64,000 nucleotides of DNA from a virus. Taxonomy: Duplodnaviria; Heunggongvirae; Uroviricota; Caudoviricetes. Where the stretch lies: positions 38,209 through 102,208 of IMG/VR virus record IMGVR_UViG_3300029705_000040; one strand, given 5' to 3'. The notes under the pieces were generated by a model that worked only from the letters and a program-made list of their open reading frames with translations, ran no database searches and had not been told where the DNA came from. Position 1 is the first letter of the stretch. Each line of letters begins with the position of its first letter. A program made the translations under genes and the position numbers. Shown one piece after another: positions 1,384 to 17,165 of the stretch.

Positions 1384-1532
1384 GTCTCACGAACATATAT
1401 ACTTCCACGCAGTGTGAGATGGTAATCATTTATTAAATTAAGTGAGCTAGACTATATGTAAAAATTAAATATGAGTAACTTAGCTTGGTAATGGTCGACC
1501 TACTAAGTTACCAAGCTAAGGGAAAATATTGA

Positions 1533-2306
1533 ATGAAAGAGTATCCAAAAACCTTTTGTGAATTTTGCAGTAAATTTATTTCAAACAATAATATCGAAAA
1601 ACATAAATTAAGTCATTTAAATAATCCAAATTATTAGCGACGTATAGCCGGATTTACATATCAGTTGGATCATAACGATTTATTTTGTAAATTTTGCGGA
1701 AAAGAATGTAAAAATAAAAACTCTCTTATTTAGCATGAGATAAGATGTAAAAATAACCCTGATAGGTAGACAAGTGTTCGTAATAAGTTTAATAATATTG
1801 GTAGGAATGCTTGGAACAAAGGTTTAACAAAAGAAACTGATGAGAGGGTTGTTAAAAATAGCTTAAGTGTTAAAAAATTTTATTAGGAACATCCGGAAAA
1901 GAAACCTGGTGGATACAAAAAGAGTTCAGCACGAAGCTATAAATATGGAACATATAGAGGTTTTTATTGCGACTCAAGCTGGGAATTAGCTTTCATAATT
2001 TATTGTTTAGATAACAACATTGAGGTTGTAAGGAATGAAATCGGTTTCTAGTATATTAATTCTGATGGACAACAAAAAGAATTTTATCCAGATTTTATTG
2101 TAAATAGTACTTACTATGAAATTAAAGGTGGTTATGATACTTAGACAGAATATAAGATAAATCAATTTCCATATAACTTAGTTTTACTTAATTATGAAAG
2201 CATACAACCATACTTGCAATATGCAAAAAACACATATGGAAAAGATTTTATAAGATTATATGATAGAAATTATCCATCCTGGATGGATAAAGAATCTATT
2301 GAGTAA
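1533..2306 (+). CDS. Freestanding PD-(D/E)XK nuclease with two N-terminal C2H2-like zinc fingers (homing-endonuclease-like); contains 6 in-frame TAG codons
   Basis: ATG 1533 after a GGGAAAA RBS-like stretch. Codon-by-codon check gives a 257-codon frame to TAA 2304 whose only internal stops are TAG at 1635, 1731, 1767, 1884, 2049 and 2142. Motifs C-x2-C...H-x4-H (x2) and YPDF...EIK. Paralog of 14717-15643. Confidence 0.6.
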
Positions 2307-2873
2307 TACCAAAGTGATAAGTTGCTTTGTTAGTTTTGTTAATCACTTCTTAATCGGAAATCGCAAACTAAATATTGAATACAGTATAATGTGAATATAG
2401 GCGGAGCAAAAGGTAGATACGAAATTCAACGGTCCAAAGTCTTCGTTAGGGTGAAACACGGTAACTGCTTCTATGGCTGAAGGTGCCTACTGTATCTAAA
2501 ATTATTCGAGGGTAATGGCCTGCTAAAGTTGAAATGATATATACGATAGCCGAGCTGCTTCGTAGCAGACAGTAATTTTAGCGTTATAGTCCTACAGATA
2601 CGTTAAATCTGGGAACATACATAGTGGACTAATTATATTATTTTCGTAGAATTATTAATGATTATTATGTATAATTATTTAGTAAGCTGATATGGAGGTA
2701 TGTCTGTAGTTGTTCTACGCATTAGCAGCTGAAAAGTATTTATGCAGTACAGTTAACAACGAATCTTTATAACACTTGAGGAGCGGAAGAAAATTAGGTG
2801 TGGCAACAGCGACCAACTAACAGTGTCGAAGAGTTATGTAAAGTGTTATTTAGTAGTAAGTGTTAACAGGTAT

Positions 2874-2950
2874 GGCCCCATAGACAAACTGGTAGAGTCA
2901 CCAGCCCTTCAAGCTGGAATTTGCGGGTTCGAGCCCCGCTGGGGTCACCA
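2874..2950 (+). tRNA. tRNA-Glu (TTC) with C at position 33
   Basis: Acceptor GGCCCCA/TGGGGTC, anticodon stem CCAGC/GCTGG, loop CCTTCAA, T-arm GCGGG-TTCGAGC-CCCGC, CCA encoded. Confidence 0.55.
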
Positions 2951-3053
2951 TATGAAACAAATCTTTCCTATTTTCAATAACACATACTAAAGGGTTAGAA
3001 AAATAGGTGGAGGCGCCACAACCTTCGTTAACTATCAAATCTGTGGCATAATA

Positions 3054-3145
3054 TGAGAGATTAAGCAAACGGCAAAGCTCAGACTAGAAATCTGGAAGTT
3101 ATGCGCATAACTAATTAATGTAGGTTCGAATCCTACATCTCTCAA
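3054..3145 (+). tRNA. Type II tRNA with anticodon AGA (A34; Ser UCN reader?) and A73 discriminator
   Basis: Acceptor TGAGAGA/TCTCTCA, anticodon stem TCAGA/TCTGG, loop CTAGAAA, long variable hairpin GTTATGCGCATAAC, T-arm TGTAGG-TTCGAAT-CCTACA. Confidence 0.5.
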
Positions 3146-3148
3146 GTT

Positions 3149-3224
3149 GGGGTAGTAGCTCAATTGTTAGAGTATCTGCCTTCCAAGCAGAATGTTGCGG
3201 GTTAGAGTCCCGTCTGCCCCTCCA
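3149..3224 (+). tRNA. tRNA-Gly (TCC)
   Basis: Acceptor GGGGTAG/CTGCCCC, D stem GCTC/GAGT, anticodon TCTGC-CTTCCAA-GCAGA, CCA encoded. Confidence 0.8.
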
Positions 3225-3256
3225 TTATTTTTTTTTTATTTATATAGTAAAAATAG

Positions 3257-3285
3257 TTGATTTAATAAGCATTTTATTATATAAT
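3257..3285 (+). promoter_or_regulatory. sigma70-like promoter TTGATT-N17-TATAAT (family copy 1)
   Basis: Exact 17-nt spacer between TTGATT 3257-3262 and TATAAT 3280-3285. Confidence 0.6.
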
Positions 3286-3553
3286 ATAATTAGTTAATAA
3301 GTACTATATTAATTACTCGCGATAATTATTTAGTACGTAACCACAGCTAGTGTACCTTACTTTTCTTATTTGGGCAATAGATAGTTACACAATTTAGTGG
3401 TGATATAAATATAGTAACAGCTAGTATTTCTTACTTTATTCCTGGGATCAGGGCCGAACTTTTAATTCGATATATAGGGATACCTTACGTTACAAACAAT
3501 TTAACATCTCAGCTATTAGGACTTACTTTTAATGCATTCAGGAGCCGGGTGTC

Positions 3554-3613
3554 GTTGGTTCGAGTCCAACCTCCCCTACCAATATATAGGGGAGTAGCGC
3601 AGTTGGTAGCGCA
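3554..3613 (+). pseudogene. tRNA fragments in permuted order (3' half followed 6 nt later by a 5' half)
   Basis: 3554-3581 = T-arm GTTGG-TTCGAGT-CCAAC + CTCCCCT-A-CCA. 3588-3613 = AGGGGAG-TA-GCGC-AGTTGGTA-GCGC-A (acceptor 5' strand complementary to the upstream 3' strand). No anticodon arm joins them. Confidence 0.4.
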
Positions 3614-3673
3614 CCGTATAATAGTTCTAAAATTAAAACGAATTTTTATATCTAAATGGAGGTTTTAAGATAT

Positions 3674-5755
3674 ATGATGAAAGATTTGTACAGAGATTAT
3701 TTATTTAGTAAAAACATTTTGGTTTGCGTTGATGCGAATAATACTAAACATGATGATGTTTCAGCATTTTCATCTTTATTTGCTATCGCGAAAAAGTATA
3801 ATATTAAGATTAACGCTGGTAAAAGACTAGCTGATCAAGAAATTCTCAGATATCTTGAGAAGCAAATTCCTGGTAAAGTTACCGAAGCTTTTTATCGTGG
3901 ATTCCCTGAGTCTGTAAAAAGATTGAGTCCTACAGAGTTGCTTTTTGATCAACTTCTTCATTACTTCGATACGTATGTTTGCGGTAATTTTGATGGTGAT
4001 GCAGCTCACTCTGTTTTCGAGGAAACTTTCGAAACTGTAGCTTTCAATGAAAAAACTGAGATTAAGAATTTTGATATTCTTACAGAAGAAGATGCTGAAA
4101 AAGTTTTGCTTGAAATGGCTAACAATTTGCTTGCTTCTTCTAGACCTCTCAGTCAAGCTGCTTATGATTTGATTAAAGAGCTTTCTATCGATAAAAAGTT
4201 AATTATTACTGATGGTATTGCTAGTAGAGATACTGCTATTAAGTTATTGCTTGATTTAGAAGATGCTATTTTTGCTAAATATATCCAATTAAGTGATATT
4301 CTTAAAGTTGTTGAGGAATTGTTGCATAACAAATATCCTGGGATGACTCTTAAAAAGCTTAATCTTAAAAATCAAGATAGAAAGTTTGTTACTAATATTC
4401 TTAACATTAAATTTGCTAGTGGTAAACTTTCTAAATTCCAAAAAGCACTTTGCTTCGAAAGAAGAGCTGATTGGAAAGGTTTGCTTCACCAAATTCATTA
4501 TAAAGCAAAGAATGCTGCTGCATCTGAATTTGTTAATGATATCCGCAATGCAGAGAAAAATCTTTCTGTAATGGCTGATTTTGAAAACCTTATGATTAAA
4601 GGTGAAGTTGTTGGGGCTGCTGCGGTTCTCGCGAATAATAAGGGTAGCGGTGCTATTCTTAGAAATCTCAACTATATTCTTTCCAGATGTGAAAGTGCCG
4701 CAGATGTAGCAGAAGTTGTTAAATTTATCAAATCAGATAACCCTATTCTTCTTTTCCAACTTATTATGCAGTATAAGAATTATGTGGAAGATAAATCCGC
4801 ACGTACATTTACTTTCACTAAATACTATAAGCTTAAGACTCACAGAGAAACTTATGTTGAGCAATCTGCTAGAAAGTCTTTTGTTGGTAAAGAAATAAGA
4901 GATGCTGTTGTTCCTGCACTTTGGGATAATGTAAGATCTATCTACAAAAATAAGTTAGGGAAAGTCTATATTGATGAGTCAATGAAAAATATAGCTGTAC
5001 CTATGCAAGAAACAACTGCAGAAATGGGTTTGGGTGTACTTCCTAAAGGTACCAGAATGCATATCCCTGAAGGCAAAGTTGTTCGCGCTTTCACTTATTG
5101 GGAAAAGGTTAATGATATTGATTTATCTGCTATCGGTGTAACTGCTGATGGAAAGAGCATTGAATTCTCATGGAGAAGTATGTATAACAGACAGTCTGAT
5201 GCAGTTTGCTTCTCTGGAGATCAAACCTGTGGTTATAATGGTGGTAGCGAATATTATGACTTTAATTTGGAAGCTATCAAACAAAAGTATCCTACTATGA
5301 AATATTTAGTAGTATGCAATAATGTTTATAGCAGAGTACCTTTTAGCAAATGCAACTGTAAAGCGGGCTATATGCTCAGAGATAAAGTACGTTCTGGTGA
5401 GGTTTGGGAACCTAAAACTGTAGAATCATCCTTTAAGATTACTGGTGATAGCACTTATAGTTATATGTTCGCTATTGATGTTGAAAAGAATGATTTTGTA
5501 TGGCTTAATATGTGTAAAGATAGTATGGCTAGAGTAGCTGGTGACTCAGACTTTACATTCCTTGCAAAATATATTGGTATGACCGAAATTCTCAACGTAT
5601 ATACTTTGTTTGAAATGATGGCTACCGAAATTGTTGATAATAAAGAAGAAGCTGATATTTTAGTAACTGATGATATTCTTGAACTTGGGGAAAACCAAGA
5701 ACAGGTAAAATCTACAGATACTGAAAAGCTTCTCAAATATTTGAATAATAAGTAA
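3674..5755 (+). CDS. Hypothetical protein, 693 aa
   Basis: Long ORF; GGAGG at 3658-3662 precedes ATG 3674; TAA stop; no motif recognised. Confidence 0.7.
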   Translation: MMKDLYRDYLFSKNILVCVDANNTKHDDVSAFSSLFAIAKKYNIKINAGKRLADQEILRYLEKQIPGKVTEAFYRGFPESVKRLSPTELLFDQLLHYFDTYVCGNFDGDAAHSVFEETFETVAFNEKTEIKNFDILTEEDAEKVLLEMANNLLASSRPLSQAAYDLIKELSIDKKLIITDGIASRDTAIKLLLDLEDAIFAKYIQLSDILKVVEELLHNKYPGMTLKKLNLKNQDRKFVTNILNIKFASGKLSKFQKALCFERRADWKGLLHQIHYKAKNAAASEFVNDIRNAEKNLSVMADFENLMIKGEVVGAAAVLANNKGSGAILRNLNYILSRCESAADVAEVVKFIKSDNPILLFQLIMQYKNYVEDKSARTFTFTKYYKLKTHRETYVEQSARKSFVGKEIRDAVVPALWDNVRSIYKNKLGKVYIDESMKNIAVPMQETTAEMGLGVLPKGTRMHIPEGKVVRAFTYWEKVNDIDLSAIGVTADGKSIEFSWRSMYNRQSDAVCFSGDQTCGYNGGSEYYDFNLEAIKQKYPTMKYLVVCNNVYSRVPFSKCNCKAGYMLRDKVRSGEVWEPKTVESSFKITGDSTYSYMFAIDVEKNDFVWLNMCKDSMARVAGDSDFTFLAKYIGMTEILNVYTLFEMMATEIVDNKEEADILVTDDILELGENQEQVKSTDTEKLLKYLNNK

Positions 5756-5859
5756 GATTATAGAAGCGAAAAGTTTTTTCATTTTCTCCTTTGTAAAAGC
5801 TGTTATTCAATGCGAGTAACAGCTTTTAATTTTACTTATAAGATAGTTAGCTAAATTAG

Positions 5860-5888
5860 TTGATTTATTCTGTATAGTATTATATAAT
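5860..5888 (+). promoter_or_regulatory. sigma70-like promoter TTGATT-N17-TATAAT (copy 2)
   Basis: TTGATT 5860-5865, TATAAT 5883-5888. Confidence 0.55.
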
Positions 5889-5918
5889 AGATATGTAGAT
5901 AAGATAATAAATCTATAT

Positions 5919-5995
5919 AGGGGATTGGTATAGTAGGTGATTATTCGGGTCTCCAAAACCTTGAGAAAAAAGTTCGAGTCTTTTATCCCCTGCCA
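5919..5995 (+). tRNA. tRNA-Trp (CCA)
   Basis: Acceptor AGGGGAT/ATCCCCT-G-CCA, anticodon loop CTCCAAA, T-loop TTCGAGT; resembles E. coli tRNA-Trp. Confidence 0.7.
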
Positions 5996-6132
5996 CAGCT
6001 TGATATGATAACAAATAGCGACACAAGCCCAAGTGTTTGTATAATTATACTTAAGAAATAAATAGATAATTATACAGTGCCTATCAAATAGTCAGATGTG
6101 TGGTTAGCCGACCTTAAGGTGTTTCATTTTAT

Positions 6133-6207
6133 GGCTTGGTAGTTCAGTGGTAGAACGATGGACTGAAAATCCATATGTCGATGGTTCAATCCCATCTCAA
6201 GCCACCA
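6133..6207 (+). tRNA. tRNA-Phe (GAA)
   Basis: Acceptor GGCTTGG/TCAAGCC, D GTTC/GAAC, anticodon ATGGA-CTGAAAA-TCCAT, T GATGG-TTCAATC-CCATC, CCA. Confidence 0.85.
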
Positions 6208-6354
6208 AGCCGAGTGTTGACGTTTTATAATCTTTTTCAAACGGGGCTAACGGTAGCAAAAAGAGGACTTTTTCAAATCCGTAGATAAGTAGGTTTTAAG
6301 TTGAAAAACCAAATACCATACAGTAGTAACTGGTCAAAAAGATTCTACTAATAT

Positions 6355-6463
6355 AATTGAGTGGCTGAATGGCAAGGCACACCTCCGAAAAGGTTTGGTG
6401 GTTTCCGGTTCGACTCCGGTTTAGGTTGTGGTAACTCATACAAGTTCGAGTCTTGTCTCAATT
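6355..6463 (+). other. Aberrant ~109-nt tRNA-like element (tRNA-Ser-like D-loop, two T-arm hairpins)
   Basis: Acceptor AATTGAG...CTCAATT are perfect complements. D-loop GAGTGGCTGAA is identical to E. coli tRNA-Ser. Internal hairpin CCGG-TTCGACT-CCGG plus terminal T-arm ACAAG-TTCGAGT-CTTGT. Anticodon arm ACCT-CCGAAA-AGGT has a 6-nt loop. Confidence 0.35.
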
Positions 6464-6473
6464 ATTTCTACAT

Positions 6474-6562
6474 GCGTCGGTAGCCCGTAAATAGTAGCGG
6501 ACCAGACTGTAAATCTGGTGGCCTGACGGCCTCTGGGGGTGCAAGTCCCTCACGGCGCACCA
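6474..6562 (+). tRNA. tRNA-Tyr (GTA), type II
   Basis: Acceptor GCGTCGG/ACGGCGC-A-CCA, anticodon CCAGA-CTGTAAA-TCTGG, variable arm TGGCCTGACGGCCTCT. Confidence 0.8.
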
Positions 6563-6566
6563 ACTT

Positions 6567-6643
6567 CTTTCTGTACCCGAATTGGCATAGGGGCATGACT
6601 AAGGATCATGTTTTTGGAGGTTCAAGTCCTCTCAGAAAGACCA
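6567..6643 (+). tRNA. tRNA with anticodon AAG (A34; Leu CUN reader?) with short variable arm, G37, A73
   Basis: Acceptor CTTTCTG/CAGAAAG, anticodon CATGA-CTAAGGA-TCATG, T GGAGG-TTCAAGT-CCTCT, CCA. Confidence 0.55.
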
Positions 6644-6784
6644 TTGTTAATAAATCTCAAGTATTCTACTGGGTAGTGTGGTGTAGTTAACAGTACGTTC
6701 GAGTCGTATGTAAAACTTGAGGAAAGTAGTTGAACTACATTGATGACTACTTAACAAAATTATATAATGAGGTAATAACCTGTT

Positions 6785-7531
6785 ATGAACGAACAACTTA
6801 ATTTAACACCGCAAGAATATTTTGATCAAGTAAAAGAAAAGAAACAACATGTTACCGATGAAATGCTTAATCAAGTATATGATAACTGTTTGACGCTTCT
6901 TAATAAATATAAGATTACAGGTCAAAAAACTGGTATTAAAAAATTACTTTTTCATTTAGAATGTATTGAAAAAGAGCGTGAAATCATTAAGCTAGGTGTA
7001 GATACTTTTGTATATAAAGATGATATCGAAGAATATATCGATAATGTAGCAGATGATGCAGTTAAGATTATCGAGCTCGAAAATTATGAAAGAGATATCC
7101 CTAATGAGATTGTTGAGCTTATTGATAAAGTAAAAGATAAATTCGATAGACTTTATGTTGTTTTCACTGATTATACTGGAAAAGAAGAGCGTAAAATAGC
7201 TAAAGAAAAGCATGCTAAAGATCCTATTCTTTTTGGAACATTCTTAAATGATAGTAAGCGAGTTGTTGTAGATAGATTCTATTATTTAGGCGACTGGATC
7301 GATGAGTACTGTGATCTAACTCTTGATAAGATGGTTAATGAGTATAAGCAAGAAACTGGAAAAGAGATTCGCAGAACAATTAAAACACCTGCTGATATAG
7401 AGGAATTAAAAGATCAATTGAAAGGTCTTACACCATCAACAGTAACTAATGGCTTATATTTGATCAGTAATGAGCAACCTAAAAAGTCTTTTTTCAGCAA
7501 AATAAAATCTATTTTTAGTAAAAACAAATGA
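6785..7531 (+). CDS. Hypothetical protein, 248 aa
   Basis: ORF with upstream GAGG; TGA stop overlaps next start (ATGA). Confidence 0.7.
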   Translation: MNEQLNLTPQEYFDQVKEKKQHVTDEMLNQVYDNCLTLLNKYKITGQKTGIKKLLFHLECIEKEREIIKLGVDTFVYKDDIEEYIDNVADDAVKIIELENYERDIPNEIVELIDKVKDKFDRLYVVFTDYTGKEERKIAKEKHAKDPILFGTFLNDSKRVVVDRFYYLGDWIDEYCDLTLDKMVNEYKQETGKEIRRTIKTPADIEELKDQLKGLTPSTVTNGLYLISNEQPKKSFFSKIKSIFSKNK

Positions 7532-7959
7532 AAAGAAACGTTGATTTAACAGTTAATGGAGATTTTTCAGATAGATCTACTGCATCAAATGGAAGTTTTA
7601 TATCTGTTTGGAATTTATTTCTAACTGGTGGTGATAGAATTCCTTGGAAATATTCTAAAGTTAAAGAAGTGCATTCTCAAGAAGATGCATTACACTCTGA
7701 CTTAGTAATAACTGGGAATAAATCAGATAGAGTTAGATATAGAGCTATGCAAATAGCAGAATCAACTAAACATTGCGATAGATGTGGCAAAAAATTAAAT
7801 ATAATGAATTCAGACTTAAACATGAGCTTATGCTCTAAATGCTATAAATCACTTGAAAAAGATTATGGTAAGGTAAAAATACCTTTTATAGACATAAATT
7901 TAGGTCATAAAATCGGAAATAATTACTGGACTCAATATATGAATCATAGAGCAAGATAA
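7528..7959 (+). CDS. Hypothetical protein with C-terminal zinc ribbon (CDRCG...CSKC)
   Basis: ORF; start is translationally coupled to the previous gene. Confidence 0.65.
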   Translation: MKRNVDLTVNGDFSDRSTASNGSFISVWNLFLTGGDRIPWKYSKVKEVHSQEDALHSDLVITGNKSDRVRYRAMQIAESTKHCDRCGKKLNIMNSDLNMSLCSKCYKSLEKDYGKVKIPFIDINLGHKIGNNYWTQYMNHRAR

Positions 7960-7984
7960 GGTAGTTATAATCTACCTTTAATAC

Positions 7985-8066
7985 GCCCTTATAGACGAAC
8001 TGGCCTAGTCAGCGGACTTAGAATCCGTGCGTAAGCGTCTCCGTTCAAATCGGAGTAGGGGCACCA
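7985..8066 (+). tRNA. tRNA-Leu (TAG), type II
   Basis: Acceptor GCCCTTA/TAGGGGC-A-CCA, 3-bp D stem GAC/GTC, anticodon GCGGA-CTTAGAA-TCCGT, long variable arm. Confidence 0.8.
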
Positions 8067-8151
8067 GTAAATCTTAGATGTATCGATACAGACTAAGCAG
8101 AGCGAGTGTCCCTTGCGTCCTCGGTAAAACTCTGAAAATCGCATGGACCAT

Positions 8152-8244
8152 GGTGAGATGGGTGAGTTGGCTGAAACCAGTCCCCTGCTAAGGGACCGAC
8201 CCTGGAAACGGGGTCCGCGAGTTCGAATCTCGCTCTCACCGCCA
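8152..8244 (+). tRNA. tRNA-Ser (GCT), type II
   Basis: Acceptor GGTGAGA/TCTCACC-G-CCA, anticodon GTCCC-CTGCTAA-GGGAC, variable arm ~20 nt. Confidence 0.8.
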
Positions 8245-8286
8245 CTTATAGGTTGATAACTTATCCTATAAAAGAGTTATTGAGGT

Positions 8287-8332
8287 TAGTTGTAAGCCAA
8301 AAGCAGCAATAGGTTCAAGTCCTGTACAACAA
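8287..8332 (+). other. Truncated tRNA-like minihelix (acceptor + T-arm only)
   Basis: TAGTTGT...ATAGG-TTCAAGT-CCTGT-ACAACAA; the 15-nt linker replaces the D and anticodon arms. Confidence 0.3.
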
Positions 8333-8397
8333 CAAAGGTATGTAGAGTGTACCTTAAGCACTCCGCTATGTGCGCTAACAGCGAAAGCGTACTAATT

Positions 8398-8474
8398 GTC
8401 TCTTTGGTGTAATGGATTAGCATAACTCCCTACGAAGGAGCAGATAAGAGTTCAAATCTTTTAGGGGACGCCAG
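8398..8474 (+). tRNA. tRNA-Arg (ACG)
   Basis: Acceptor GTCTCTT/AGGGGAC-G-CCA, anticodon loop CTACGAA (same as E. coli Arg-ICG), T AAGAG-TTCAAAT-CTTTT. Confidence 0.75.
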
Positions 8475-8480
8475 TATATT

Positions 8481-8768
8481 ATGAAAGAAATTACAAAAAC
8501 GATAAAACTAAATAGAGATTTAAAACAGTCTTTCTATAATAAAAGAACGGCTAAAGTTAGGTTATTTGTTTGTCCTAAATATAAGGGTAAGCAAGATGTA
8601 CGAATATTTATAGAAAGTATTGATGATTATGCTTTGTTTCTTAATAGAGAATGTTATTCAGATGAAGAAGTAGAGTTAGCTTATAATGCGTTAAAAGTAA
8701 TTTTTGATAGTATACCAAAAGTTCTAACTAGACAATGGTGTAAAGAAAATAATTTCGAACTATATTAA
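8481..8768 (+). CDS. Hypothetical protein, 95 aa
   Basis: ORF immediately 3' of the tRNA; TAA stop. Confidence 0.55.
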   Translation: MKEITKTIKLNRDLKQSFYNKRTAKVRLFVCPKYKGKQDVRIFIESIDDYALFLNRECYSDEEVELAYNALKVIFDSIPKVLTRQWCKENNFELY

Positions 8769-8775
8769 ATAATAT

Positions 8776-8849
8776 GTCCGAATAGCCAAGCGGTAAGGCA
8801 GGGGACTGCAACTCCCCGATCATCTGTTCGAATCAGATTTCGGACTCCA
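8776..8849 (+). tRNA. tRNA-Cys (GCA)
   Basis: Acceptor GTCCGAA/TTCGGAC-T-CCA, anticodon GGGGA-CTGCAAC-TCCCC. Confidence 0.85.
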
Positions 8850-8911
8850 AATAAAATATAAGGGAGGATTTCATAATGCAGCTATAAAAGATTAATTTTA
8901 GGAGAACCATT

Positions 8912-9274
8912 ATGAAACAACGTCACAAATATTTTAGAAACCAGCGTTACAGAAATAAAGCTGAGCAAAAAGCTCTTATGACAGGTTGGGGTTATGGAAG
9001 ATATTATTATTTCATAACTAAAGAACCAGATCCTGCTAATCTTAGAGAGTGGCCTTTTACGCCTGACATTAAAGCTAGAGGTAAGGATTACTATTGTTAT
9101 TATTGCAATAAACCTACTGTTCCATATACTATTATGCAGGGCCAACGTAGAAGGACTTTTCCCAAATATTATAGAAATTATTGTAATAGACGTCTTAGAA
9201 AAACTTTTAAAGATGAAATTTATAATAATTGCTTATATAAGAAGCTTACTGAATATTGGTGGACTATTGATTAA
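8912..9274 (+). CDS. Hypothetical basic protein, 120 aa
   Basis: ORF with AGGAG RBS. Confidence 0.6.
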   Translation: MKQRHKYFRNQRYRNKAEQKALMTGWGYGRYYYFITKEPDPANLREWPFTPDIKARGKDYYCYYCNKPTVPYTIMQGQRRRTFPKYYRNYCNRRLRKTFKDEIYNNCLYKKLTEYWWTID

Positions 9275-9280
9275 AAATAG

Positions 9281-9309
9281 TTGATTTTTACTTAGATTTA
9301 TATTATAAT
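9281..9309 (+). promoter_or_regulatory. sigma70-like promoter TTGATT-N17-TATAAT (copy 3)
   Basis: TTGATT 9281-9286, TATAAT 9304-9309. Confidence 0.55.
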
Positions 9310-9356
9310 ATATGTATAAAATATAGATATGATTGATATAATCATCTCTATAATAT

Positions 9357-9431
9357 GCAGGATTAGCGTAGCGGATACGCAACCGCCTTCTAAGCGGTTA
9401 CAGATAGGTTCGACTCCTATATCCTGTACCA
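9357..9431 (+). tRNA. tRNA-Arg (TCT)
   Basis: Acceptor GCAGGAT/ATCCTGT-A-CCA, D GCGT/ACGC, anticodon ACCGC-CTTCTAA-GCGGT. Confidence 0.85.
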
Positions 9432-9481
9432 CTTTTTATTCAAAACTTTCTAAATAGAAGGAAAATCTTATAGGAAAATAG

Positions 9482-9510
9482 TTGATTTATTATATAAGAA
9501 AATATATAAT
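9482..9510 (+). promoter_or_regulatory. sigma70-like promoter TTGATT-N17-TATAAT (copy 4)
   Basis: TTGATT 9482-9487, TATAAT 9505-9510. Confidence 0.55.
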
Positions 9511-9542
9511 AATAATATAAAATATCTGATGAGGTTAAAGTT

Positions 9543-9812
9543 ATGAATAAAGAACATAACTGGATGAAATTTACTCTCAAAACTATTTATAATGAAGAAA
9601 TTGTTGTTATGTATGATAGCAACAGATATCCTTCTGATAAAGAAGATGAATTAAGAAAAGCGATAGATTTGGCCGATGTCTATAGAAATTCTTATTATAA
9701 TGATAGTGGAGTTATTGTTATGGATAAGAAAACAGCTGATTTTTGGTTTGGTGTCGTAGAAGAAGTTAAATGTAAAGCATTAGAGAAATATAGAAATGAA
9801 AGTATTTCCTAA
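9543..9812 (+). CDS. Hypothetical protein, 89 aa
   Basis: ORF with GAGG RBS. Confidence 0.55.
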   Translation: MNKEHNWMKFTLKTIYNEEIVVMYDSNRYPSDKEDELRKAIDLADVYRNSYYNDSGVIVMDKKTADFWFGVVEEVKCKALEKYRNESIS

Positions 9813-10056
9813 CTATGATCTATTATATGATGGTTCTATATGGAACTTAAATGATATTATCTATATGAAAATTCTTTCTTGTAGTAAACCAGGATATAAG
9901 TTTGAATTAGAATTTAGAATAAAAGAATTAGATACTTTGCTTTACTTTAATCATGTAGATAATGAATGGGATTACAAAATAGTTCAATATGAATTCATTG
10001 ATTTCTTAGCTAAATTTGTTAATCATTTATGTAAAGATTTAATCAATTTGAAATAA
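9796..10056 (+). CDS. Hypothetical protein, 86 aa
   Basis: ORF overlapping the previous stop. Confidence 0.5.
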   Translation: MKVFPNYDLLYDGSIWNLNDIIYMKILSCSKPGYKFELEFRIKELDTLLYFNHVDNEWDYKIVQYEFIDFLAKFVNHLCKDLINLK

Positions 10057-10161
10057 GTAAGACTATTCACTTAAGTAGAGAGGAAAATCTCACTTAGAAA
10101 TATAGATTTTGATATTATCAGTAAAGGTAATACCAGATAGGTGAAAAGCCTATCAAAACAT

Positions 10162-10237
10162 GCGCCTGTAGCTCAGGTGGTAGAGCACGTGACTTTTAAT
10201 CACGGTGTCCCGAGTTCGAGCCTCGGCAGGCGCACCA
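10162..10237 (+). tRNA. tRNA-Lys (TTT)
   Basis: Acceptor GCGCCTG/CAGGCGC-A-CCA, D GCTC/GAGC, anticodon CGTGA-CTTTTAA-TCACG. Confidence 0.9.
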
Positions 10238-10255
10238 AAATCACAGAGGTGTGTT

Positions 10256-10441
10256 ATGAGTAAAATTATGGAAGAACTTAATAGAATTTCTTTATTAGAA
10301 TCTATGTGTAAAAATCCTGTTACTGTAGATGCTATTAATAACTCTTATAAAGAAGATGCTGATGATAGTTTCGGTATTTTCGATACACCTGAAGAAGCTT
10401 TTGCAGCTATGGAAGAGAGTTGGAAAAATGAAAAAAATTGA
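10256..10441 (+). CDS. Small acidic protein; candidate antitoxin of the downstream RelE/YafQ-like toxin
   Basis: 61-aa ORF starting after the tRNA (track ORF trimmed); overlaps the toxin start by 14 nt. Confidence 0.4.
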   Translation: MSKIMEELNRISLLESMCKNPVTVDAINNSYKEDADDSFGIFDTPEEAFAAMEESWKNEKN

Positions 10442-10727
10442 GCTTAAAAAGTAGTTTACCAAAGATTTTGAAAAGTTATCAAAAACTGGTAAAATCGATA
10501 AGAAAAGTTTTTCTAATATAATTAATGATATAGCTGCTGGAAAACCTCTTGATCAAAAATATAGAGATCACGCTTTAGCTAAGCACTCTCCAAAAGAACT
10601 ATAGGGCTGTAGAGACTTCCATTATAAAAGCAATATATGTGTTGTTTATAAAGTTTTAGATGATTTAATTCAGCTTATAAGGATTGGAAGTCATCAAGAT
10701 CTAGGATTAACTGAGGATTTAAGATGA
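10428..10727 (+). CDS. RelE/YafQ-family type II toxin, 99 codons including 2 in-frame TAG
   Basis: Verified frame ATG 10428 to TGA 10725. Only internal stops are TAG at 10452 and 10602. Motifs ...KDFEKLSK..., DHALAKH, CRDFH, VVYKV..LIRIGSHQDL match YafQ/RelE. The first TAG aligns with Q of E. coli YafQ SGQYSKDV. Confidence 0.6.
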
Positions 10728-11383
10728 CCGATTTAGAAATATTTATACAAAACAATCAAGAATTAATCGATCTAAATACTAAAGAAAGCTGGATAGAAAT
10801 TTATGATTTGTTTGAAAGCTCTTATTATGATGATTATCTAGCTGGAGAATTAAGCAAATTATTAATTGATATTAATGCAGATCCATGTCATATAATCGGT
10901 TTTGTTCCTAGAAGATTTTTAATGGGTCAAAGCGATTTAACTAAATATGAAATACCTAAAAATGCATCTTATATAGGAATGAGTGCTTTCGAAGATACAG
11001 CTTTAGAAGAAGTATATATACCAGAAAGTGTTAGAGAGCTAGATTTCTTATGTTTTTCAGGAACTAAATTAAAAAAAGTATTTATACCGGATACTGTGCA
11101 TAGAATAGCAAATGGGGTATTTCATTCTTGCTTAAATCTAGAAGAAGTATTGATTGGTAAAGTATCGGAATTGGGCGAAGATGTTTTTGCTAATTGTGAG
11201 AATTTAACAAAATTAATTATTTGCGATAGTGTATCTCAACTTGATTCTAGCATTGTTAAAGGTTGTAAATCACTAAAAGAAATCGATTTTTTAGGAACGA
11301 TCGAAACATTTGAAAAGATTCGAGTAGGTTATACAGAATCATCTATAAAAATAAAATGCATAGATGGTGAAATTTCTTGGTAA
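10724..11383 (+). CDS. BspA-type leucine-rich repeat (LRR_5-like) protein
   Basis: Repeats of the form IP.SV..I...F..C..L..V.I across 219 aa; ATGA overlap with the toxin stop. Confidence 0.65.
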   Translation: MTDLEIFIQNNQELIDLNTKESWIEIYDLFESSYYDDYLAGELSKLLIDINADPCHIIGFVPRRFLMGQSDLTKYEIPKNASYIGMSAFEDTALEEVYIPESVRELDFLCFSGTKLKKVFIPDTVHRIANGVFHSCLNLEEVLIGKVSELGEDVFANCENLTKLIICDSVSQLDSSIVKGCKSLKEIDFLGTIETFEKIRVGYTESSIKIKCIDGEISW

Positions 11384-11480
11384 AATAATTAAAAATTAAG
11401 AAATTAGTCCTGTATAAATAATTGTTAAAAGAAAAACATTTAATTTAAGAAATTTTTACGCTAAATTAAATGTTATAAAT

Positions 11481-11565
11481 GCTGGTGTTCCCGTAGTGGC
11501 CAACCGGAACGGATTTGTAATCCGTCGCGAAAGCTTCGTGAGTTCGAATCTCACCACCAGCTCCA
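11481..11565 (+). tRNA. tRNA with anticodon TGT (Thr ACA?) but an 85-nt type II-like architecture
   Basis: Acceptor GCTGGTG/CACCAGC-T-CCA, anticodon ACGGA-TTTGTAA-TCCGT, extra hairpin CGAA-AGC-TTCG in the variable region. Confidence 0.5.
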
Positions 11566-11645
11566 GACGTCGAAATCAAAAGTAGACAAACAGATACGTT
11601 ATCTCAGAAATAATCTGTATAAACTATAAGAGATAACATAAAAAT

Positions 11646-11719
11646 GCCTCGATGGCTCAGCGGTAGAGCAGTCGCCTAGTAAGCGACAGGTCGTCGGTTC
11701 AAATCCGACTCGAGGCTCC
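11646..11719 (+). tRNA. tRNA with anticodon AGT (A34; Thr ACN reader?)
   Basis: Acceptor GCCTCGA/TCGAGGC-T-CCA, D GCTC/GAGC, anticodon GTCGC-CTAGTAA-GCGAC. Confidence 0.6.
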
Positions 11720-11727
11720 ACAATATA

Positions 11728-11804
11728 TTGGGGATTCGCCAAGCGGTAAGGCACGGGATTTTGATTCCCGCATTTCGGGTGTTCGAATCACTCATCCCCA
11801 GCCA
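11728..11804 (+). tRNA. tRNA-Gln (TTG)
   Basis: Acceptor TGGGGAT/ATCCCCA-G-CCA (U1-A72 as in bacterial Gln), anticodon CGGGA-TTTTGAT-TCCCG. Confidence 0.8.
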
Positions 11805-12101
11805 CCAGTGTATATATTTTTCATGAAATAAGTCTTATATATACATATATGGATAGAGACTTTGTCGGAGATATTACAACGGGTATACCCATAAGGGTGA
11901 GAGCATAAGAGTTAAACCGGCTTATTGCGAACCAGTGAACTTACGGACACAGAACGGTAACTGTAGGGAACGTAGGTAGACAACGAGTTCACTCCCTAAA
12001 GAACTAATGACCGATGCTTAGTATAATTAGTAGTACTTTCCCTTTCCTGGGAGAAACATCAGTGCAATTCTGGTAGTATCGACTTAATTAAGGAAAAACA
12101 A

Positions 12102-12290
12102 ATGATTTCACTTATTCTATTATTTCTTGAACTGATATATTTATATGTATATTATATCGTAAAAAGTAAAAGTATAGAGAAGTCACTAATGTATATAGAT
12201 AATTATATTATAAATGGTAGAAAACTTCTCACTAATACTGGTTTAGAAATTATTAGAAGTAGAGTAAATTCTAAAAGAAGTAAATTTTAA
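12102..12290 (+). CDS. Small hydrophobic protein, 62 aa
   Basis: ORF with AGGAAAAA RBS. Confidence 0.4.
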   Translation: MISLILLFLELIYLYVYYIVKSKSIEKSLMYIDNYIINGRKLLTNTGLEIIRSRVNSKRSKF

Positions 12291-12300
12291 TGAGGTGTTT

Positions 12301-12669
12301 ATGTATTCGCATCTAAATGAGCAATTATTGCTAGAGATGGCTGAAATTGGTCGTATTGATGGATATAAGATACTAATTTATGGCAGTGAAGGACCTACAC
12401 AACATTTTCATGTAGAAAATAAAGAAAAGAAAATATCAAGTTGTGTAAAAATTTGTGAAGATGGTTATTTTAGTCATGGAACACATAAAGATACTTTAGA
12501 TAATAAATTAGTTAAAAAATTAAAAGAATTTCTTAATGCTCCTCATAAATTTTTTGGAAAACATGGTTATACTAATTGGCAAATAATTTGTATTTATTGG
12601 AATGATAATAACCCAGATTATTTAATTGATTTAGATACAGTTAAGATGCCTTTGTATAATAATTTATAA
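12301..12669 (+). CDS. Hypothetical protein, 122 aa
   Basis: ORF; GAGG at 12292-12295 precedes ATG 12301. Confidence 0.55.
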   Translation: MYSHLNEQLLLEMAEIGRIDGYKILIYGSEGPTQHFHVENKEKKISSCVKICEDGYFSHGTHKDTLDNKLVKKLKEFLNAPHKFFGKHGYTNWQIICIYWNDNNPDYLIDLDTVKMPLYNNL

Positions 12670-12747
12670 TTTTGAAATATTGCTCTGCTGGCTGTTTTTA
12701 GTATCAATTGATTCAGGACTAAAACTGCAACTGGAGCCTTATATTAT

Positions 12748-12822
12748 GGTGGGTTCGTATATCGGTTAGTACACAGCACTGTCACTGCTGAAGGACGGGT
12801 TCAACTCCCGTACCTACCGCCA
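12748..12822 (+). tRNA. tRNA-Asp (GTC)
   Basis: Acceptor GGTGGGT/ACCTACC-G-CCA, anticodon CAGCA-CTGTCAC-TGCTG. Confidence 0.8.
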
Positions 12823-13187
12823 TAAAACAACAGTAAGTCCAATACTTAGTAGGCTACGTAGTACTTTGATTGGCTAGTTGTTAAGTATTCGTAGTTCGTC
12901 GAAATAAAACAAACGAATTAACCGTAAGTAACGGCGAGCGAAAACGGTTAGCCAGTAGTAAGGACAATCTTGCGAAGGCACAACTGATACATATGACAGC
13001 TTCATATGTCGTAGCATAGAAAAAGTGCTCATGATGTTTTACGTAAAGTTACATCCACTGAATTCGCTCATCTAATGAGCAGCTAGTAACACTTACTTTT
13101 GATAACAGAGAACAAATAGATATTGAAACCCAGTGTTACAAATTACTTTATAAACAGCTATTGAAACTTACTTTTATCAAATTATTC

Positions 13188-13272
13188 TGCAGGGTAGCTC
13201 AGTAATCGTTAAAGAGCGCTAATCTTTGCTAAGATTAGAGGTCGTTGGTATGAAATCCATCCCCCGCCGCCA
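13188..13272 (+). other. Aberrant tRNA-Ala(TGC)-derived element with an 8-nt anticodon loop
   Basis: D-arm TAGCTCAG...GAGCG and variable AGGTC match E. coli tRNA-Ala. Anticodon stem CTAATC/GATTAG has loop TTTGCTAA (8 nt). T-loop TATGAAAT (8 nt). Acceptor TGCAGGG/CCCCGCC has 2 mismatches. G-CCA encoded. Confidence 0.4.
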
Positions 13273-13404
13273 TTTAACAGTTTCAAAATTCTGTATTAAG
13301 AATAGAGCTATTATTACTTACTTTTTGAAATGGTTATTATAGGTTCGATTCCTATACTGAGCCTTAGGCTTAGTTGTTAGTAATATAACTTATCTATTCT
13401 ATAT

Positions 13405-13481
13405 AGCTGGGTAGAGCAGTCAGGTAGCTCGCTAGGCTCATAACCTAGAGGTCCAGGGTTCGAATCCCTGCCAAGCAACCA
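13405..13481 (+). tRNA. tRNA-Met or Ile2 (CAT), with A1:A72 mismatch (initiator-like feature)
   Basis: D GAGC/GCTC, anticodon CTAGG-CTCATAA-CCTAG, T CAGGG-TTCGAAT-CCCTG, CCA. Confidence 0.65.
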
Positions 13482-13531
13482 CTCTGCGTTTTTGGCTAGT
13501 CTTCGCGAAGAAAAATAAACTAGCATAATAT

Positions 13532-13608
13532 TGGGGCGTAGCGCAGTTTGGTAGCGCGCCTGATTTGGGATCAGGAAGTCGTGGGTTCAAGTCCCGTCGC
13601 CCCAACCA
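13532..13608 (+). tRNA. tRNA-Pro (TGG)
   Basis: Acceptor TGGGGCG/CGCCCCA-A-CCA, D GCGC/GCGC, anticodon CCTGA-TTTGGGA-TCAGG (G37). Confidence 0.85.
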
Positions 13609-13856
13609 CACCAATTAACAATTATAAAACATATTTTGTACTTGTTAATTTGAGATGTACCTATAATAGGGTCGCTACTGTTGCAGCAGTAGGAAAACAA
13701 CATAAAGCGTAGTATTAAAAGAACGATTAATTAAAATAGATGCACACGGTAGCGCGCCAAAAGGCTCAGTTATAATGGTATTGAGAGACGTGGGTTTCAC
13801 TTGGAGAATCGGGAGGGTGAACGCTTTATTTTATATATTTTTAGTTGAATAATGAA

Positions 13857-13986
13857 GGTGCCACGAAGGATCTAATACCGTAACCAGTCGGTTCCTCATG
13901 TCCATATAACGCCTTTAAACTAAGGGGGTTGGAAACAGGGTTGGATTGTAAAAATAGCTGTGGTAAATGGAATGTGATGAACAGCC
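13857..13986 (+). repeat. Structured non-coding element, copy 1 (GGTGCCACGAAG...AGCTGTGGTAAATGGA..GATGAACAGCC)
   Basis: Shares its 5' 12-mer and a ~45-nt 3' block with 14296-14381. Confidence 0.5.
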
Positions 13987-14295
13987 TTTAATTATAAATA
14001 AAATAGCTGATGTACTAGTGTACAAACAGTTTCTCAGGTCGATTCGGAATCGGCTTGTGCATAAACAATTCTCTTAGGCTTACTATTGTTCGGAACTTTA
14101 GTAGCACACTTAAGAGCTTAGAGAAGTCATTGTTTGTAAGTGGAAAGATAATACGCACGTATTAAATCAAGACTCATTTTCAATAAAAGAAACTTACCAC
14201 ACCACTAACTTATTTTTAATTACCGCGGGAATCATTATTAAGTTGAGTGGAAATTTGAATTTAAGCATTTCAACAATTCAATAATCCCTATAGAC

Positions 14296-14381
14296 GGTGC
14301 CACGAAGCCGGCTGACAAGCCGAGGGGTCGCGTTGGATCTGTATAACAGCAGCTGTGGTAAATGGAGCGAAATGAACAGCC
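14296..14381 (+). repeat. Structured non-coding element, copy 2
   Basis: GGTGCCACGAAG...GTTGGATCTGTATAACAGCAGCTGTGGTAAATGGAGCGAAATGAACAGCC. Confidence 0.5.
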
Positions 14382-14716
14382 GTTAATATATTTTTTATAA
14401 GGGAGACTATTGAGATGTTTGGAATGGATCAATGGAATTTTCTTGCATATGCTTTATTAATTAATTATATGGAAGAAAATAAAAAGCTATTTGGAAGGAT
14501 TTGAGCAACTATCTTTCCAAAATATGGGCCGTTATATCATGTTAGCAGATTACCTGATTTGCACTCAGGAGGCGACCGGGGCAGCACCGGTACGGTCCAC
14601 CAGAACTAAATATAAGGTAGCAAAAGAAGTCATGAGCTTTTGAGATAACAATACTACTATTATTGAGCTTAAATTTAGTATATCGCAAATATTTTTCATA
14701 GTAGGAGAAATTATAA

Positions 14717-15643
14717 ATGCAAAGTTTTCAATGTATATGTGGAAAAATTTTTTCATCTAAACATGCTTTAAGCGGGCATCACAGTCATTGCGTAGAATAT
14801 TTAACTAATATTGGAAGATTACACATACGGCAATAGGTGGATGCTACAAATGGAGCTAAAAGTGGTGCTACACTAAAAGCAAAAAGCATAGAAAGAAAAG
14901 CGGCTAATATGCTAGCTTGGGTATAGCAGTAGAATACATGTGAAAAATGTGGTAAGATTATGCTTGAGAAATTTGGATCTGGTAGATTTTGCTCCAGAGC
15001 ATGTGCTAATAGTCATGTGAAACATGGAAAATATACAAACGAAAACGTAAAAAATAGAAAAACAAAGTCAAATAAAAAATCACACAATCAACTACTTAAA
15101 GAGTATATTTTAAGTCCACCGAAATGTTTGATTTGTGGTAAAACTCTTGCATATGAGAAACGTGCTAGAAAAACATGTTCAAAAAATTGTTGTAGTAAAT
15201 ACCTCTCGAAGTAGAAAAAAGATCTAGTTGAAAAAGTTGGCGGTAACTTAAATCAATATGGTACGCGAGGTCACGCTAGATATGGTACATATAAGGGGTT
15301 TCACTGCGATTCTTCTTATGAGCTCGCGTTCGTAATATATTGTCTAGATCATAATATTATATTTTAGAGAAACCATAAGGGATTTTCTTATAATTTTCAA
15401 AATAAAAATTATAAATATTATCCAGACTTTATTATAAATGATAAATACATAGAAATAAAAAATTACAAAAGCGATCGCGTTATTGCTAAGACTAATTAGT
15501 TTCCAATAGATAAGATTTTAGTAATTCTTTATTTATCTGATATAAAAATCTGTATAGATTATTGTATAAAGGTTTATGGTAAAAATTTTACTGAACTCTA
15601 TGATAAAGATAAACCATCATGGATGGATAAGAAAAATAGTTGA
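14717..15643 (+). CDS. PD-(D/E)XK/C2H2 freestanding nuclease, paralog 2; contains 6 in-frame TAG codons
   Basis: Verified frame ATG 14717 to TGA 15641. Only internal stops are TAG at 14834, 14924, 14930, 15212, 15365 and 15497. The C-terminus FHCDSSYELAFVIYCLDHNIIF*RN...YYPDFII...EIKNY...PSWMDK aligns with 1533-2306, and the TAG sits at the same column. Confidence 0.6.
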
Positions 15644-15681
15644 TGCAGATGCCGCGTGTTCGACTCACGTCAGCTCCACCA
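15640..15681 (+). other. tRNA 3'-half-like fragment overlapping the nuclease stop
   Basis: GCGTG-TTCGACT-CACGT + CAGCTCC-A-CCA; no matching 5' half found in the window. Confidence 0.3.
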
Positions 15682-15782
15682 TTAAATCGAATACAGGTAC
15701 TTGCGAGATGTTATACTGTTGTAAGCAGTGTTTAATAACAGTGTTAACAACAATATAACATTTTCCTGTATATTTAATAAAT

Positions 15783-15858
15783 GTGGGTGTAACTCAATTG
15801 GTAGAGTGCTAGCTTGCCAAGCTGGATGTTGCGGGTTCGAACCCCGTCACTCACTCCA
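15783..15858 (+). tRNA. tRNA-Gly (GCC)
   Basis: Acceptor GTGGGTG/CACTCAC-T-CCA, D ACTC/GAGT, anticodon CTAGC-TTGCCAA-GCTGG. Confidence 0.8.
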
Positions 15859-15983
15859 GGCCATATGTGCAAATGATTAGAAATAACCAGTGATGGCTCC
15901 AGAGATGTTTTATGGTTGAACTCATATAATAAAAACCATTATCGCCTTTATAAGTAATGCACATTGCGAAAATGAGGCTACTG

Positions 15984-16059
15984 CGAGAGTTATATCAATT
16001 GGGAGATAAGCTGCCTTACAAGCAGAAGGTTACAGGTTCAAGTCCTGTACTCTCGACCA
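15984..16059 (+). tRNA. tRNA-Val (TAC)
   Basis: Acceptor CGAGAGT/ACTCTCG-A-CCA, D TATC/GATA, anticodon loop CTTACAA. Confidence 0.8.
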
Positions 16060-16410
16060 TTAGGAAAACTACAACGGGATAGGAGACCCCCGCTACAGAG
16101 ATAACCAATGCATTCGTTGAAAAATACGTGTCATCTAGAGTTGAGTTGGTGAGTGGGAGGGCACAGAGCTAAACGATAATATGTTAAAGTAAACTGTTGA
16201 TACTTATTATTTTATGCTCCGAGACAGTGTGGTCGCAAGACGTGACATCTTAAGTGCAGAGGTATGTGGATGTTGTAGCAGATTAGGGTTTAGATGCATC
16301 CGAGAATTGGGTTTGCCCTAATCAAGTATGGGGTTGCTGGTGTAACGTTAGCACGACAGATTGTGGCTCTGTAAGACTAAGTTAGATTCTTAGGCTTCCC
16401 ACCATTAAAT

Positions 16411-16497
<87 letters not shown>

Positions 16498-16597
16498 AGA
16501 TTGTTTAGTTTCTGTGTTATACTTTTTATCAAACTTATACATAATATATATGTAGAAGATAATTCTTCTAAAATATTTTAAGTGAGGTATAAGAAAC

Positions 16598-16969
16598 ATG
16601 GACAACAAAAAAGAAACTCAAACTCAAGAAACATCATTTAGAGGAATTCCCATTCCTGAAATTGAAAAGAAGCATGATTATAAAGTAGCTGATTCTCAGA
16701 AAGTTATCGATAAGATAATGGCTATGTCTCCAGAAGAACAGAAAACAGTTACTCTTGAAAGCATCCATTACGAAGATAAAGAAATTAGCGAAGTAAAGCT
16801 CTCTACTGGTGATATTATTCCTGTAGAAGCTGCTATTGCACTTGCTGAAAGTAAATTATTAAATGGATTTAGAGCTGGTAGAAATGCTAGAGGCGACCGC
16901 ACTTTAAGAGCTACCCCTAATTATGCTGGTAAGGAAAAGAATTCTATCCACAAATTACCTGTATTCTGA
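16598..16969 (+). CDS. Hypothetical protein, 123 aa
   Basis: ORF with GAGG RBS; TGA stop. Confidence 0.65.
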   Translation: MDNKKETQTQETSFRGIPIPEIEKKHDYKVADSQKVIDKIMAMSPEEQKTVTLESIHYEDKEISEVKLSTGDIIPVEAAIALAESKLLNGFRAGRNARGDRTLRATPNYAGKEKNSIHKLPVF

Positions 16970-17012
16970 GATGAAAGGCTAGAGGAATATAATTTCTCTA
17001 GTTTACATATAA

Positions 17013-17089
17013 GCCTTCGTGGCTCAACTGGTTAGAGCGACCGGTTCATACCCGGTAGATTGGGAGTTCAAGTCTCTCCGAAGGCACCA
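17013..17089 (+). tRNA. tRNA-Met (CAT), elongator-like
   Basis: Acceptor GCCTTCG/CGAAGGC-A-CCA, anticodon ACCGG-TTCATAC-CCGGT. Confidence 0.8.
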
Positions 17090-17165
17090 GCAGGTATAGT
17101 GTAACGGATTAGCACATCAGACTACGGATCTGATAATATGGGTTCGAATCCTATTACCTGTACCA
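17090..17165 (+). tRNA. Second tRNA-Arg-like (ACG; loop CTACGGA)
   Basis: Acceptor GCAGGTA/TACCTGT-A-CCA, anticodon TCAGA-CTACGGA-TCTGA; directly abuts the previous tRNA. Confidence 0.6.

Follow-up and report, generated by a model that had tools for sequence, protein, structure and literature searches.

A YafQ-Family Toxin Gene with In-Frame TAG Codons and Its Small Acidic Partner in a Large Phage That Reads TAG as Glutamine

Introduction

The closest described relatives of the locus analysed here are type II toxin–antitoxin systems: DinJ–YafQ of Escherichia coli and Vibrio cholerae, and the pairs HP0895–HP0894 and HP0893–HP0892 of Helicobacter pylori. In these systems a small basic toxin is encoded after a small acidic partner, with the two genes overlapping, and the toxins belong to one family (PF15738) with a common fold. 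Three histidines, H50, H63 and H87 in E. coli YafQ, are the catalytic residues. Toxins of the same family are also borne, and annotated as such, by temperate phages and prophages (Streptococcus phages Javan639 and Javan95, and a Helicobacter pullorum phage), where they are written in the standard code.

Toxins that depend on the reading of a stop codon as sense are known from the laboratory: barnase with amber codons is used for the negative selection of suppressor tRNAs, and in this engineered setting only TAG-suppressing cells produce the toxic RNase. In nature, both stop-codon recoding by phages and its concentration in harmful genes have already been described. Among gut phages using code 15 or code 4, lysis genes and an intron homing endonuclease are preferentially recoded, delayed translation has been proposed for the recoded genes, and no more than about 40% of these genomes have a suppressor tRNA that can be detected (Borges et al., bioRxiv 10.1101/2021.08.26.457843). 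Published surveys place suppressors in only 40-60% of TAG-recoded phages, and nested or intron-bearing tRNAs have been reported for recoded jumbo phages. The paper of Borges et al. does not use the word "toxin" (0 times), and in the literature searched we found no toxin of a toxin–antitoxin system among recoded genes, whereas the phage described below has such a toxin rich in TAG, and a MazF-like domain with TAG codons is present in a relative too.

Results

Layout of the Cassette

The window, by which we mean the whole 64-kb stretch of phage DNA under analysis, has 32% GC and every gene on the plus strand. Within it, a presumed antitoxin ORF of 61 aa (10256..10441), which has no TAG and ends in TGA, is followed by a toxin ORF of 99 codons (10428..10727), also with a TGA stop, and the two overlap by 14 nt (10428..10441). 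Codons 9 (10452..10454) and 59 (10602..10604) of the toxin are in-frame TAGs, read here as Gln. An earlier note, made from the DNA letters, had described the 61-aa acidic ORF, the 14-nt overlap and the 99-codon ORF with two TAGs, and had placed the pair among tRNA genes. All of these details are confirmed by the coordinates: ARAGORN reports 28 tRNA genes within 463..17165, with the cassette among them, and a tRNA-Lys(UUU) gene at 10162..10237 (ARAGORN; 68 bits with the Rfam tRNA model) ends 18 nt upstream of the cassette.

The partner is acidic (computed pI 4.2, net charge -8.5) and the toxin basic (computed pI 9.4). There is no internal Met in the toxin ORF, and if TAG is not decoded only an 8-residue peptide is possible; the two in-frame TAGs thus bear out the claim that both have to be decoded for full-length toxin. 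Directly downstream follows a BspA-type leucine-rich-repeat gene (10724..11383; 219 aa, 0 TAG), whose ATG shares bases with the toxin stop in the ATGA at 10724-10727. Scans for promoters, terminators and the T4 late promoter (TATAAATA) either gave the same result as shuffled sequence or were uninformative.

Several further elements were observed in these surroundings. The tRNA array continues upstream of the window with Met, Leu, His, Met and Leu tRNAs, and a papain-like Peptidase_C1 gene (L011:3289-4143) is located inside it, about 3 kb upstream of the window start. Downstream of the cassette, 11805..12083 comprises a relatively GC-rich intergenic stretch of about 200 nt and then a "tRNA-Glu(ttc)" that is called by ARAGORN alone and is unreported by the Rfam tRNA model at E<0.1. 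A sub-threshold match to the Y RNA-like YrlA family (3525..3637; 39.6 bits, the gathering score being 69) immediately precedes a conserved ORF of 699 aa without a Pfam domain (3656..5755).

The Toxin Has the Family and Fold of YafQ

Profile and structure work was carried out with TAG translated as Gln. The toxin matches the Pfam family YafQ_toxin (PF15738) with 71.3 bits (cut-off 30; E=8.6e-20), and the match spans profile positions 2-86 of 88, crossing both TAGs. It also scores 57.1 bits against the NCBIfam RelE/StbE model TIGR02385 (cut-off 27.9) and matches PHROG 7251, "RelE-like toxin"; against the narrower model TIGR00053 it reaches 63.8 bits, which is under the cut-off of 87.25. By sequence, H. 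pylori HP0894 and HP0892 and YafQ are matched in the PDB. The structure model used is the AlphaFold (AF2) model of a database protein, P0001, which is 98% identical to the window toxin. This model (pLDDT 92.7) has the RelE-type alpha/beta fold, with two N-terminal helices on an antiparallel sheet, and its best Foldseek match is HP0894 (4ltt; TM 0.84/0.91, rmsd 1.3 Å), with YafQ of E. coli and V. cholerae (4ml0_B, 9lew_B) among the other top matches; for the DinJ–YafQ and H. pylori systems as a group, TM ranges over 0.75-0.91. The profile searches thus place the ORF in the RelE/ParE superfamily, and the YafQ/RelE identity put forward in the earlier note is upheld by PF15738, TIGR02385, the PDB matches and the structural comparison. 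The motifs that it quoted (KDFEKL, CRDFH and IGSHQDL) are present, and most of them are invariant in 24 homologues.

Toxin residues H48, H65 and H89, which are invariant or nearly so across the 24 homologues, align with H50, H63 and H87 of E. coli YafQ, so that the phage toxin has all three histidines in common with DinJ–YafQ and the H. pylori systems. Fully invariant among these homologues are R62, H65, N69, G87, H89, D91 and the tail LGLTE. Unlike E. coli YafQ, the toxin has Asn69 at the equivalent of D67 (the Asp is absent, and the Asn is invariant within the subfamily), a subfamily-specific insert and motif, SPKxYQGCRDFH...IGSHQDLGLTE, and Gln residues encoded by TAG. The toxins of temperate phages are only 30-35% identical to it and occur in temperate contexts, none of them within the tRNA array of a jumbo phage, unlike the toxin of the window. 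We infer that the product is a ribosome-dependent mRNA endonuclease; in the YafQ family such cleavage takes place at in-frame AAA codons.

The window also contains RNA-repair genes for a Pnk-like kinase, a metallophosphoesterase and an RNA ligase (23207..24214, 27399..28304, 46231..47460). In another lineage, GmrSD_N and RtcB genes stand immediately upstream of the toxin–antitoxin pair (L041:8063-9923). Such a toolkit may matter where an RNase toxin produces cyclic-phosphate ends.

The Partner Belongs to a New Small Family

The 61-aa partner has no match in Pfam, NCBIfam, PHROGs, PADLOC or the PDB, and profiles built from 8 and from 47 members likewise find none in Pfam or the PDB. A profile search yields a family of 47 proteins, 61-89 aa long, in which no Pfam domain is seen. 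The partners upstream of the toxins in relatives are mutually homologous, at 20-34% identity. An AF2 model of the window partner (pLDDT 84, pTM 0.45) predicts three helices and no strand, and Foldseek returns no fold match for it. Unlike DinJ and RelB, the partner shows no ribbon-helix-helix DNA-binding head and no detectable similarity to either of them by profiles, PDB searches, hhalign or Foldseek. We also considered that it might correspond to the C-terminal, toxin-binding part of DinJ and rejected this, with an hhalign probability of 0.5% and negative PDB and Pfam profile searches. PADLOC finds no defence-system match.

Judged by these sequence comparisons, the partner represents a previously undescribed family of small acidic proteins lacking any DNA-binding domain. 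We presume that it binds and neutralises the toxin; its position, coupling, charge and strict co-conservation, and not homology, are what point to an antitoxin role. It should be noted that the partner gene has no Gln codon at all, and its lack of TAG therefore carries little weight.

The Whole Phage Reads TAG as Glutamine

Under the standard code, the 101 plus-strand ORFs of at least 60 aa in the window end in TAA (69), TGA (30) or TAG (2), and both of the TAG stops are internal TAGs of longer ORFs. No ORF of this size truly ends in TAG, and two ORFs below 60 aa are ambiguous in this respect. Pfam domains run across in-frame TAGs, and in the zinc-finger homing endonuclease paralogues Gln stands opposite TAG in 8 of 91 residues, compared with a background of 2.8%. 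The same phage is present in more than 24 public contigs, the longest of 262 kb, and in over 20 of these the toxin is omitted by standard-code gene callers. The phage (at least 262 kb) decodes TAG as Gln, that is, it uses genetic code 15. Like the phages of Borges et al. (bioRxiv 10.1101/2021.08.26.457843), it is a large phage of low GC in which TAG is not a terminator and recoded stops are concentrated in genes that would be harmful if expressed early, homing endonucleases included.

The concentration was quantified with a 109-gene model of the window, in which four TAG-rich genes were compared with the 105 others. The four are the toxin, a zinc-finger homing-endonuclease-like ORF (1533..2306; 6 in-frame TAGs), its paralogue (14717..15643; 6 in-frame TAGs) and a homing endonuclease with GIY-YIG and NUMOD3 domains (26573..27424; 4 in-frame TAGs), all on the plus strand. 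TAG accounts for 18 of their 39 Gln-type codons (46%), against at most 18 of 404 in the 105 other genes, where many of the 18 TAGs are likely start-site artefacts (Fisher p=5e-12; for the toxin alone p=0.02). All 18 interruptions of the four genes are TAG, with no TAA or TGA.

Further endonuclease genes just outside the window show similar numbers: an HNH endonuclease gene with 3 TAGs (L011:5864-6631) and an endonuclease gene with 8 (L034:13287-14339). Five homing-endonuclease-type genes (zinc-finger/PD-like, GIY-YIG with NUMOD3, and HNH) thus contain 3-8 TAGs each while their neighbours have almost none, and several of the TAG-dense ones are inserted within the tRNA array. A few ordinary genes have a single internal TAG, namely 28516..28872 (codon 44), 29431..29859 (codon 22) and 52655..53344 (codon 124), and of these the DUF3310 gene and the gene for a 229-aa repeat protein each have a long open stretch past the TAG, consistent with read-through.

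The earlier note saw in the TAG-bearing toxin an unusual regulatory twist of this module. The toxin does contain the TAGs; they are not peculiar to the module, because TAG terminates no ORF of at least 60 aa and occurs in frame within other genes, and the whole phage lineage reads TAG as Gln.

Both Toxin TAGs Are Sense Codons in a Constrained Gene

Codons 9 and 59 of the toxin both fall on columns where the closest homologues carry Gln. Column 9 corresponds to Q11 of E. coli YafQ; it reads TAG in the window and in L017, L020, L038/L039, L040 and L041, and CAA in L018. At column 59 most of the 24 homologues have Gln, and in the codon alignment no lineage but the window and L017 has TAG there; of the other nine codon-aligned lineages, seven have CAA or CAG and two have Asn and Lys, respectively. 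The TAG at codon 59 is derived in the lineage of the window. Column 90, like columns 9 and 59, varies between TAG and CAA or CAG from lineage to lineage, and in L040 the near-invariant Gln of GSHQDL is itself encoded by TAG. We did consider the conservation of the codon-9 TAG as a sign of selection and dropped this, as shared ancestry and AT mutation bias suffice to account for it.

In the window and five diverged lineages the toxin gene is interrupted by TAG only, never by TAA, TGA or a frameshift. Pairwise dN/dS among the TAG-bearing toxins is 0.15-0.29 (dS 0.7-2), and between the window and L017, which have both TAGs in common, 9 of 11 toxin substitutions are synonymous, including changes at sites downstream of each TAG. 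Both TAGs are accordingly sense codons for Gln, and the full-length toxin is under purifying selection.

The Gene Pair Is Conserved in Diverse Phage-Like Lineages

The pair of small acidic ORF and toxin was found in at least 12 distinct phage-like lineages, and in every complete cassette examined a small ORF (61-81 aa) lies immediately upstream of the toxin. The overlap is 14 nt in four of six cassettes measured and 1 and 17 nt in the other two. A search of IMG/VR gave only two relatives, in both of which the small ORF ends at the toxin start, and a metagenome scan added only two loci. GenBank phages include no close relative by DNA or protein, and a scan of GTDB species genomes for the motif IGSHQDL[GE]L detected no copy of the toxin subfamily. 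Unlike DinJ–YafQ, the subfamily is thus seen on phage-like contigs alone. Some of these are 200-250 kb long, and several of its members lie within tRNA arrays; in L025 and L036 a tRNA-Lys occupies the same position as in the window.

The number of TAGs varies widely among these relatives. The toxin has none in L018, L025/L036, L026, L027, L028, L029 and L037, one in L020, L038 and L041, and four in L040, which indicates that TAG is unnecessary for the module to work. In L041, TAG is common in ordinary genes, such as those for SSB and LRR proteins, so the degree of recoding differs between lineages. Relatives keep the leucine-rich-repeat gene in synteny after the toxin, and its L020 version (L020:1588-2247) contains 4 TAGs vs none in the window, again a strong difference in TAG load between lineages.

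In L018 a TAG-free ORF of 57 aa (L018:7609-7782) precedes a gene (L018:7782-8474) in which a PemK/MazF-like domain with 3 TAGs (Pfam 30.9 bits) is joined in frame to a GNAT acetyltransferase. From its sequence, this is a second toxin-like gene that needs TAG decoding, an independent parallel to the YafQ-family toxin.

Individual variants of the cassette were also seen. In L013 (L013:9281-9752) the change G10412T (window position) turns E53 of the antitoxin into TAA, leaving an antitoxin of 52 aa and an intact toxin; one relative has a frameshifted toxin (L042:904-1210); and L010 has a K8N variant of the toxin (window position 10451).

Search for the Suppressor

To find a suppressor tRNA, we ran ARAGORN in default, intron-tolerant and low-threshold modes, together with Rfam. 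Across some 80 kb of this phage (the window plus 6.3 kb upstream and 10 kb downstream), we found neither a tRNA with the anticodon CTA nor other machinery for suppression, and a CTA tRNA was likewise absent from the sequences of relatives that were searched.

A tRNA-like element at 6354..6465 (Rfam tRNA, 35 bits) has a perfect acceptor stem and T arm with an extra T-arm-like hairpin inside, and ARAGORN calls it only when introns are allowed. As a suppressor candidate it was rejected, having no CTA anticodon.

Discussion

The reading that we favour, with fair though far from complete confidence, is that this code-15 phage carries a live toxin–antitoxin-like cassette in which the output of the toxin depends on the state of TAG decoding and is probably delayed or attenuated. 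Host ribosomes using the standard code would terminate at TAG, so that toxin translation would end after 8 residues unless TAG is suppressed, while the TAG-free partner could be translated at any time. TAG decoding would be supplied by the phage and be limited in time or efficiency; synthesis of the toxin would then hinge on the code switch and lag behind, or fall short of, that of its partner, and the homing endonucleases of the phage would depend on TAG decoding in the same manner. Such gating of toxin and endonucleases matches the model that Borges et al. (bioRxiv 10.1101/2021.08.26.457843) put forward for lysis genes and an intron endonuclease. The uncoupling of toxin from antitoxin synthesis that the earlier note had proposed is a reasonable mechanistic consequence if, as we suppose, there is little or no suppression in early infection and the upstream ORF encodes an antitoxin.

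Code-dependent translation of the toxin follows mechanistically from its TAGs, whether it is an adaptive gate or a tolerated by-product. The main rival to gated translation is accordingly the neutral one, which we hold to be unlikely but by no means negligible: TAG would be one more Gln codon, suppression effectively constitutive, and the toxin TAGs the product of drift from CAG to TAG under AT pressure. It would follow, with the same rather low probability, that the toxin:antitoxin balance is unaffected by these codons. The variation from 0 to 4 TAGs among relatives, with none in seven lineages, fits this explanation, since relatives do not conserve TAG as part of the toxin's design, as does the use of TAG for SSB, LRR and other genes in the L041 lineage. 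The sole viable synonymous exit from TAG is moreover a T->C change, which runs counter to the AT bias, and TAG can accordingly last without being selected for. With an antitoxin devoid of Gln codons, the asymmetry between the two genes is weak on its own. Neutral drift accounts less well for the window itself, where 105 neighbouring genes almost wholly avoid TAG and the toxin and three homing endonucleases have it at nearly half of their Gln-type codons, and where the TAG at codon 59 is derived. That TAG was purged from ordinary genes and not from these four suggests that its decoding is costly, inefficient or not always available, and limited decoding would explain both the purge and the tolerance of a new TAG in the toxin.

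The role of the upstream gene can also be questioned. It could be an unrelated coupled gene or a host-directed factor instead of a classical antitoxin, with the nuclease acting as a free RNase for host shut-off or against competitors. The partner is homologous to no antitoxin family and lacks a DNA-binding domain, and in what looks like a lytic jumbo phage an addiction function of the plasmid type makes little sense. We nevertheless find this improbable: the upstream position with overlap is strictly conserved in the 12 or more lineages with partners 20-34% identical, the acidic partner is paired with a basic toxin, and the size and the predicted extended helices of the partner are typical of antitoxin segments that wrap around a toxin.

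A decaying toxin gene, killed by two nonsense mutations and leaving only a functional antitoxin (for example as an anti-defence factor against YafQ/RelE toxins of the host), could be suspected from its omission by standard-code gene callers and from the frameshifted toxin of L042 and truncated antitoxin of L013, but we reject this reading as highly implausible on the TAG-only pattern and the dN/dS values, to which the Gln columns, the largely synonymous recent changes, the intact catalytic and family-invariant residues, and the other conserved genes that likewise need TAG as sense can be added.

Returning to a cassette whose toxin is gated by the code, the phage arrangement has the same logic as amber-codon barnase; it is natural, however, and adjoins a presumed antitoxin. 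More tentatively, and with considerable doubt, in-frame TAGs might act as a genetic-code lock on self-harmful genes of recoded phages in general, covering YafQ-like and MazF-like toxins and homing nucleases. Under such a lock, partners or targets that contain no TAG would be present from the outset, and the toxins would be inert early in infection and in any cell or genome without a suppressor. Possible uses of the toxin to the phage include host shut-off, competition with co-infecting phages and maintenance of a carrier state.

Independent of gating, our analysis defines a phage-restricted YafQ subfamily and a new small partner family without a DNA-binding domain, and it shows that gene calling with the standard code has missed such toxins, unnoticed, in more than 20 public contigs. 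If the toxin is indeed gated by the code switch, the idea of recoding as a timing device would widen from lysis genes and one homing endonuclease to the toxins of toxin–antitoxin systems, and the cassette would be a natural counterpart of the amber-gated toxins of synthetic biology; code-gating of toxins would be of higher interest still if it proved general.
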